Positions 24,123 to 24,437 of a stretch of 41,441 bases of DNA are shown here, in pieces (position 1 is the stretch's first letter; every line of letters starts with the position of its first letter). The notes under the pieces are model-generated. The model was not told the origin of the DNA, ran no database searches, and saw only the letters and a program-made list of their open reading frames with translations. Both the position numbers and the translations under genes were made by a program. Source of the DNA: a virus (taxonomy: Duplodnaviria > Heunggongvirae > Uroviricota > Caudoviricetes). The DNA lies in IMG/VR virus record IMGVR_UViG_2541047739_000012. The stretch is one strand, 5' to 3'.

Positions 24123-24437
24123 CTAACAACCCGTAATCGAGTTATCAGAACTGTTAATTTTTATGGTATACCGCGCCTCTGAACAGGGGCGCGTTTGTGG
24201 CAACAGCTCGTCCCCTTCACATAACCCGGCAGCAACATCCAGGAAGACCTGTCTGATGCTCCTTCTGGCTGCTGCCTCATAAAACTCCAGCGCGGCACCT
24301 TCAACACGGTCCAGCGAGATGTCCAGGTCAAAAATTTCACCGTCAAAGCGTTTTTTGTCCCGTAACGCTAAAGTTACCGTAACTTTATTCTCAAAATTGC
24401 GGATCCCTTTCACAATCACTTCATAGTTTTGAGTCAT
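24123..24437 (-). CDS. hypothetical protein inserted between holin and endolysin
   Basis: 104-aa ORF, ATG at 24435-24437 four nt after the holin stop, with the SD GGGGAGAG inside the holin 3' end; no recognisable motif. Confidence 0.5.
   Translation of the reverse strand: MTQNYEVIVKGIRNFENKVTVTLALRDKKRFDGEIFDLDISLDRVEGAALEFYEAAARRSIRQVFLDVAAGLCEGDELLPQTRPCSEARYTIKINSSDNSITGC

Follow-up and report, generated by a model that had tools for sequence, protein, structure and literature searches.

The lysis cassette of the DNA analysed here (a stretch of 41,441 nucleotides, called the window below) carries a 104-aa open reading frame (ORF) between its holin and endolysin genes. The original prediction had described this ORF as an extra gene that could modulate lysis timing or be a moron riding on late transcription. 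The locus raises the question of what the gene encodes, how regularly it occupies this position and whether its product acts in lysis or elsewhere.

Identity and translation of the intervening ORF

The ORF was located on the minus strand, with its ATG at 24437-24435 and its stop codon at 24125-24123. The holin gene ends with ...CGG GGA GAG TAA, followed by TTCA (24441-24438) and then the ATG, in agreement with the 4 nt that the original prediction had placed between the holin stop and the ORF. A Shine-Dalgarno (SD) sequence embedded in the 3′ end of the holin gene had also been proposed, and GGGGAGAG at 24452-24445 was confirmed to be positioned in this way, the distance from its GGAG core to the ATG being 9 nt. 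No promoter-like site was found between the holin gene and the ORF. Terminator-like sites numbered 8, compared to 4.3 ± 2.3 expected. A terminator-like hairpin at 24123-24148 was rejected, with only four GC pairs and a fold z-score of −0.77.

In a Pfam search the translated ORF matched PF07041 (DUF1327) with E=4.2e-38 and 129.9 bits against a cut-off of 25; window residues 1-96 aligned to profile positions 1-90 of 93 and the gathering threshold was passed. It also matched phrog_2735 (E=1.1e-54), a PHROG annotated as function unknown, and no NCBIfam model was matched. Database records label family members as ‘YdfR family protein’ or ‘DUF1327 domain-containing protein’. By BLASTP, YdfR of Escherichia coli K-12 was 66% identical (E=7e-47), with 56 of the first 60 residues unchanged. 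The proteins of mEp460 and Perceval were 97-98% identical to the window YdfR, and the DNA of E. coli A20 was 100% identical to the window ydfR. The ORF almost certainly belongs to the YdfR/DUF1327 family, and the original view that the protein has no obvious motif was wrong, since it has a family. The Pfam and PHROG matches, the dN/dS values given below and the presence of the exact window protein in at least 120 assembly blocks, all in the same context, indicate a real gene and not a chance ORF.

The predicted lack of a transmembrane segment was upheld by hydropathy analysis. The maximum Kyte-Doolittle mean over 19 residues was 0.75, and the same measure gave 1.7-1.8 for the holin and for the SAR segment of the endolysin. 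With a mass of 11.7 kDa and a pI of 4.97, the window YdfR is a small acidic soluble protein.

Table 1. Features of the lysis cassette and the neighbouring late region, in window coordinates
Feature	Position	Strand	Basis
ydfR homologue (DUF1327 / YdfR family protein), 104 aa	24123..24437	-	ORF, PF07041, phrog_2735
Shine-Dalgarno GGGGAGAG of ydfR	24445..24452	-	within last holin codons (R-G-E)
Conserved N-terminal domain, aa 1-72	24222..24437	-	alignment, AF2 model, dN/dS
Variable C-terminal tail, aa 73-104 (GLCEGDELLPQTRPCSEARYTIKINSSDNSITGC), plus stop	24123..24221	-	tail catalogue, blastn breakpoints, low pLDDT
Class II pinholin, phage-21 type, 71 aa, dual start MKSM	24442..24657	-	PF04971 E=1.4e-35
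ydfR-R spacer, 55 nt	24068..24122	-	comparison of eight cassettes and Salmonella loci
Conserved endolysin leader CCTGATAAATATCC, last 14 nt of spacer, no SD	24068-24081	-	eight cassettes and Salmonella
177-aa endolysin, T4-lysozyme family, SAR-like N-terminus	23534..24067	-	PF00959
Rz i-spanin	23073..23537	-	PF03245 E=2.4e-49
Rz1 o-spanin lipoprotein, embedded in Rz	23135..23317	-	PF06085 E=6.4e-20
Four late-region tRNA genes (Gly-TCC, Thr-TGT, Lys-TTT, Met-CAT), upstream of holin	24950..25259	-	ARAGORN, Rfam
Late antiterminator Q	27140..27508	-	PF06530 E=5e-52

Like that of phage 21, the cassette combines a pinholin and a SAR-type endolysin with embedded spanins. Identity of the holin to S21 is 98.6%, and the two have the same dual start. 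The endolysin has a predicted SAR segment at residues 8-23 and a putative catalytic triad, E35-x8-D44-x5-T50, aligned to R21; its identity to R21 was 34%, with E35 aligned. On these sequence grounds it is of the RrrQ/933W-R type and not an R21 orthologue. For Rz, the start is likely the GTG that overlaps the R stop, in place of the TTG at 23552 in the ORF list; the same overlap with R is seen for the 154-aa Rz of phage 606R7.

The YdfR family and its place in lysis cassettes

The family is narrow. An exhaustive phmmer search of 1.84 billion representative proteins yielded only 57 YdfR family representatives at 50% identity, and a profile search returned 337 proteins, all DUF1327; relatives outside the family were found by neither search. 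Among 185,579 species genomes, ydfR was present at eight loci, in E. coli, E. albertii, E. ruysiae, Shigella and two MAG bins, and homologues were also found in some Salmonella. Outside Escherichia, Shigella and some Salmonella the family is almost absent. The ydfR contigs of L013 and L015 (MAGs labelled Veillonella parvula, Bacillota) were near-identical to E. coli Qin-type sequence, and probably represent binning contamination from E. coli.

The alignment of family members separated a conserved N-terminal domain (residues 1-72) from a variable tail. The residues Y5, E6, K18, R44, G47, L50, F52, Y53, E54, A55, A57 and L72 were invariant. For codons 1-72, most homologue pairs gave dN/dS values of 0.2-0.35 (NG86) with dS up to ~2, which places the domain under purifying selection. 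An AF2 model of this region predicted beta strands at 5-14, 18-27 and 34-43 followed by a long helix at 50-72, i.e. a beta-beta-beta-alpha fold. The mean pLDDT of 10-residue blocks was 69-89 over residues 1-70 and 49-55 in the tail.

Across the family, the linker ‘GLCEGDE..PEKRP’ is followed by modular tails. The tail types comprised the 104-aa form of the window (...CSEARYTIKINSSDNSITGC), the K-12 type, a 114/116-aa form (...VILEAQNVWITYKGKLPGRITGSLKTPP..) and 161-183-aa forms with a coiled-coil-like extension. Homology to 606R7, the closest phage, ends at codon 84/85 (~24185), which marks a recombination breakpoint by blastn; sub-modules inside the N-terminal domain recombine too. The coiled-coil-like extension of the 161-183-aa forms was SEKDDIESRIEKLE..., and the catalogued tails (P0021, P0025, P0135, P0145, P0213 and P0214) included, besides the 103-116-aa and 161-183-aa forms, forms of 206 and 287 aa with further domains. 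The window form resembles a 161/162-aa form truncated right past ‘...KINSSDN’.

No sequence or structural relative that pointed to a function was found for YdfR. A PDB sequence search with the family profile gave only noise (E~0.8), Foldseek gave no match in BFVD or PDB at E<=0.001, and PADLOC gave none at E<=1 for the window YdfR or four long family members. Two giant repeat proteins, P0225 (3128 aa) and P0231 (2356 aa), which have G2F, Big_9 and cadherin-like domains, matched YdfR residues ~6-58 in 6-8 stretches at 29-33% identity. These matches are probably compositional, reflecting V/T-rich beta strands, and the proteins were rejected as homologues.

In complete E. coli genomes, ydfR-like DNA was found at 7931 places in 4248 of 5426 genomes (~78%), so that ydfR ranks among the most frequent genes of unknown function in E. 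coli prophages. The 177-aa endolysin was found at 9930 places in 4376 complete genomes, from which about four in five of the 177-aa-endolysin cassettes carry ydfR, a rough figure given that megablast sensitivity differs between the two queries. Among sequenced phages, YdfR was present in 101 records, the S21-type holin in 438 and the 177-aa endolysin family in 457. The Stx1a phages included 41 with YdfR and 47 with the S21-type holin, and the Stx2c phages 15 and 17, respectively; for Stx2a phages the numbers were only 2 and 124. Records of mEp460, Perceval, H-19B and BP-4795 also contained YdfR.

The order holin-ydfR-177-aa lysozyme was common to K-12 Qin, 606R7, BP-4795, mEp460 and PhiR12_2, and ydfR lay between holin and endolysin at every locus examined (14 from Escherichia/Shigella and 3 from Salmonella). 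In all 14 Escherichia/Shigella loci, ydfR began 3-4 nt past the stop of an S21-type holin and had the same GGAG. The lysis cassettes of relatives were compared, as the original prediction had proposed, and ydfR was intact in the close relatives; absence or disruption in all of them was not seen. The assumption that S-R-Rz/Rz1 is the normal order did not hold, as S-YdfR-R was the order in K-12 Qin, mEp460, BP-4795, H-19B and most Stx1a and Stx2c phages. The gene is indeed extra relative to phage 21, 434 and VT2-Sakai, which have no gene between S and R, but it is not unusual, being a standard optional module.

The closest comparison among cassettes with the gene was K-12 Qin, in which the EssQ holin is followed after 4 nt by ydfR, the 177-aa lysozyme RrrQ and rzpQ/rzoQ, and the SD within the 3′ end of the holin gene is also shared. 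Qin differs from the window in that K-12 YdfR (b1555, UniProt P76160) has another C-terminal tail module, and in that ydfR and rrrQ overlap by their stop and start codons (ATGA) where the window has a 55-nt spacer. In phage 21 and 434, which are without ydfR, the S stop overlaps the start of a 165-aa R21-type endolysin, so that nothing corresponds to the ydfR gene and 55-nt spacer of the window. In VT2-Sakai, also without ydfR, the 177-aa R begins 4 nt after S and uses the holin-embedded SD. Aligned to VT2-Sakai DNA by blastn, the window has an insertion from 24441, just past the holin stop, to ~24041, about 27 nt inside R. Since these three phages are without the gene, one of them with a holin almost identical to that of the window, ydfR is not required for lysis.

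Thus ydfR is a common optional module of the lysis cassettes of E. coli lambdoid prophages and is already catalogued. Pfam, RefSeq, K-12 and numerous phage records already contain the gene, the family and the S-YdfR-R arrangement, which do not constitute a discovery. The gene nevertheless lies inside the best-studied of phage gene cassettes, and yet the model phages on which that cassette has been studied lack it.

In Salmonella, the holin ahead of the homologue P0108 belongs to another family, PF16080. At the Salmonella loci L017-L019 (~2460-2500), however, ~36 nt of the 3′ end of an S21-type holin gene, including the GGAG, were found directly upstream of ydfR. This ~36-nt stretch is a fossil of a holin replacement in which the start of ydfR translation was left intact. 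The retained SD suggests that translation of ydfR is under selection, independently of the S21 holin protein.

Possible functions of YdfR

The only experimental work found on the YdfR family is that of Gopel et al. (RNA Biol 2026; PMC13232886). A bacterial two-hybrid screen yielded the first 72 codons of K-12 ydfR three times, and signals with Rne(1-597) were obtained for YdfR(1-72) as well as for the full-length protein; the contact is thus with the N-terminal catalytic half of RNase E, and residues 1-72 are enough for it. When Strep-YdfR was purified from lysates, Rne(1-598)-FLAG co-eluted and DNase-resistant nucleic acid (RNA) co-purified. These lysates were without nuclease treatment, so that the contact between YdfR and RNase E could be RNA-bridged, and the authors could not rule out that the RNA was carried by a contaminant. 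Overproduction of K-12 YdfR, a stable protein with binding partners, caused no growth defect and few transcript changes, and the gene was essentially silent in normal growth, with almost no reads (PMC13232886). The interacting residues 1-72 correspond to the conserved domain of the window protein.

By homology with the K-12 protein, the window YdfR may be a modulator of RNase E or RNA; we put the probability of this mechanism at roughly 0.4. YdfR would be made late in the lytic cycle from the late operon, using the SD in the holin 3′ end, and would probably bind RNase E and/or RNA in the cytoplasm through the region homologous to K-12 residues 1-72. Once bound, it could adjust how late phage transcripts (or those of the host) are processed or degraded. 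It would be a non-essential accessory, outside the core lysis machinery of pinholin, SAR endolysin and spanins. An accessory role is favoured by family membership, the shared gene order, abundance, purifying selection, SD retention in Salmonella, dispensability and the K-12 RNase E data. Against the RNase E mechanism, the binding data come from the K-12 orthologue and not from the window protein, RNA bridging or a contaminant RNA carrier may account for them (PMC13232886), and overproduction in K-12 altered few transcripts and left growth unaffected. The acidic pI is unusual for an RNA binder, and the constant position between holin and endolysin would fit a lysis-related role equally well.

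A precedent for such an activity is T4 Srd, which binds the N-terminal half of RNase E (cited in PMC13232886). Srd, phiKZ Dip (gp37) and T7 gp0.7 are likewise small phage proteins that target host RNase E, in the case of Srd at the N-terminal half; neither homology nor a shared fold was found between YdfR and the RNase E modulators T4 Srd and phiKZ Dip. If the interaction is physiologically real, it bears on whether temperate coliphages manipulate RNase E late in infection.

P1 LydB and T4 RIII are soluble, cytoplasmic and non-essential holin regulators that are encoded beside the holin. It is conceivable, though doubtful, that YdfR is a cytoplasmic modulator of lysis timing of this kind, acting on the charged cytoplasmic C-terminus of the holin or affecting how the SAR endolysin is produced or released. 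Its location between holin and 177-aa endolysin at all 14 Escherichia/Shigella and three Salmonella loci, its translational linkage to the holin and the purifying selection on the protein are consistent with this. However, phage 21, 434 and VT2-Sakai lyse without the gene, and the unrelated PF16080 holin ahead of ydfR in Salmonella makes an S21-specific partnership unlikely. Linkage inside a small cassette is also to be expected even without a functional link. There was no lysis-category match for YdfR in PHROGs or Pfam; the searches of Pfam, NCBIfam and PHROGs returned only DUF1327 and PHROGs of unknown function, with no similarity to known lysis regulators such as P1 LydB, T4 RI/RIII or the S-type dual-start antiholins. 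YdfR differs from LydB and RIII in having no homology to them and in its co-occurrence with a second, unrelated holin family. In the literature search, no paper was found to mention both ydfR and holin, and DUF1327 received a single incidental mention.

An accessory or moron function unrelated to lysis or RNA, such as anti-defence, exclusion or an effect on the host envelope, with the gene riding on late transcription as first suggested, was considered unlikely. The family being narrow, young, mosaic and phage-borne, and the protein small and acidic, would suit such a role, and a Keio ydfR mutant scored in a CPRG screen for envelope leakiness (PMC3879167 supplements). The simplest reading of that phenotype, in our own interpretation, is polarity of the kan cassette on rrrQ, the lysozyme gene that follows ydfR. 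Further, YdfR had no PADLOC match and its gene no promoter-like site of its own after the holin, K-12 ydfR had almost no reads in normal growth (PMC13232886), and late expression would come too late for anti-defence.

The remaining readings concern the sequence between ydfR and R. In every ydfR-bearing cassette compared (the window, L001, L002, L005, L007, L008 and, for Salmonella, L017-L019), the 177-aa endolysin was preceded by the AU-rich, SD-less leader CCTGATAAATATCC-ATG, whereas in cassettes without ydfR the R gene uses GGAG or GAGGTGA of the holin 3′ end. The ydfR-R spacer had no significant RNA structure (z=−0.77), and the Rfam search returned tRNAs only, with no family match in the spacer. 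The leader pattern, kept in Salmonella too, would accord with ydfR acting mainly in cis, by taking the holin SD from R and leaving an SD-less start so that endolysin translation is lowered or uncoupled relative to the holin, the protein being secondary; this is improbable, as dN/dS well below 1 and the invariant residues point to selection on the protein itself, and the K-12 protein is stable with binding partners (PMC13232886).

Returning to RNase E modulation, the same leader would be a candidate cleavage site. It is highly speculative, and we consider it very improbable, that YdfR, synthesised along with the holin, connects RNase E with the lysis programme by controlling cleavage of the late transcript through the catalytic half of RNase E or through its RNA substrate. 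The cleavage site in that case could be the conserved AU-rich, SD-less GAUAAAUAUCC-AUG upstream of the endolysin, and its control would set the holin:endolysin ratio or the stability of the late mRNA. If true, such a link would mean a layer of post-transcriptional control of lysis in most E. coli prophages, absent from lambda and phage 21, the models on which the understanding of lysis was built.

The surrounding prophage

The cassette sits in a nearly complete lambdoid prophage. Together with Q, a RusA gene and a DUF968 gene were found upstream of the cassette on the same strand, and the position of Q places the cassette in a Q-dependent late operon. A CI-like repressor (34213-34860) and a RecE-like gene (36695-39121) were also identified. 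A tyrosine integrase gene at 39383-40408 (+) adjoins a tRNA-Ser(CGA) gene at 40461-40550 (-), which probably mark the prophage end and its attachment site. Given this end and a tail fibre gene at 585-4001, nearly all of the prophage is contained in the window.

Downstream of the spanin genes, an HNH endonuclease gene at 22680-23030 (-) is situated between Rz/Rz1 and the gene of the small terminase subunit (22050-22532), an HNH-terminase order that is typical of HNH-assisted cos packaging. In the tRNA cluster upstream of the holin, 606R7 has only Met, Thr and Gly tRNAs at the corresponding position, so the tRNA-Lys(TTT) of the window is extra.

Between Q and the tRNA cluster, a block of ~1.9 kb (25556-27104, +) contains ORFs of 293, 87 and 143 aa that are antisense to late transcription. 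None of the three had a match in the Pfam search. In PADLOC, the 293-aa ORF matched PDC-S42, a candidate defence family (E=4e-27), and 606R7 is without the block. The block probably represents a defence moron located at the Q-S hotspot, the site that stx occupies in Stx phages.
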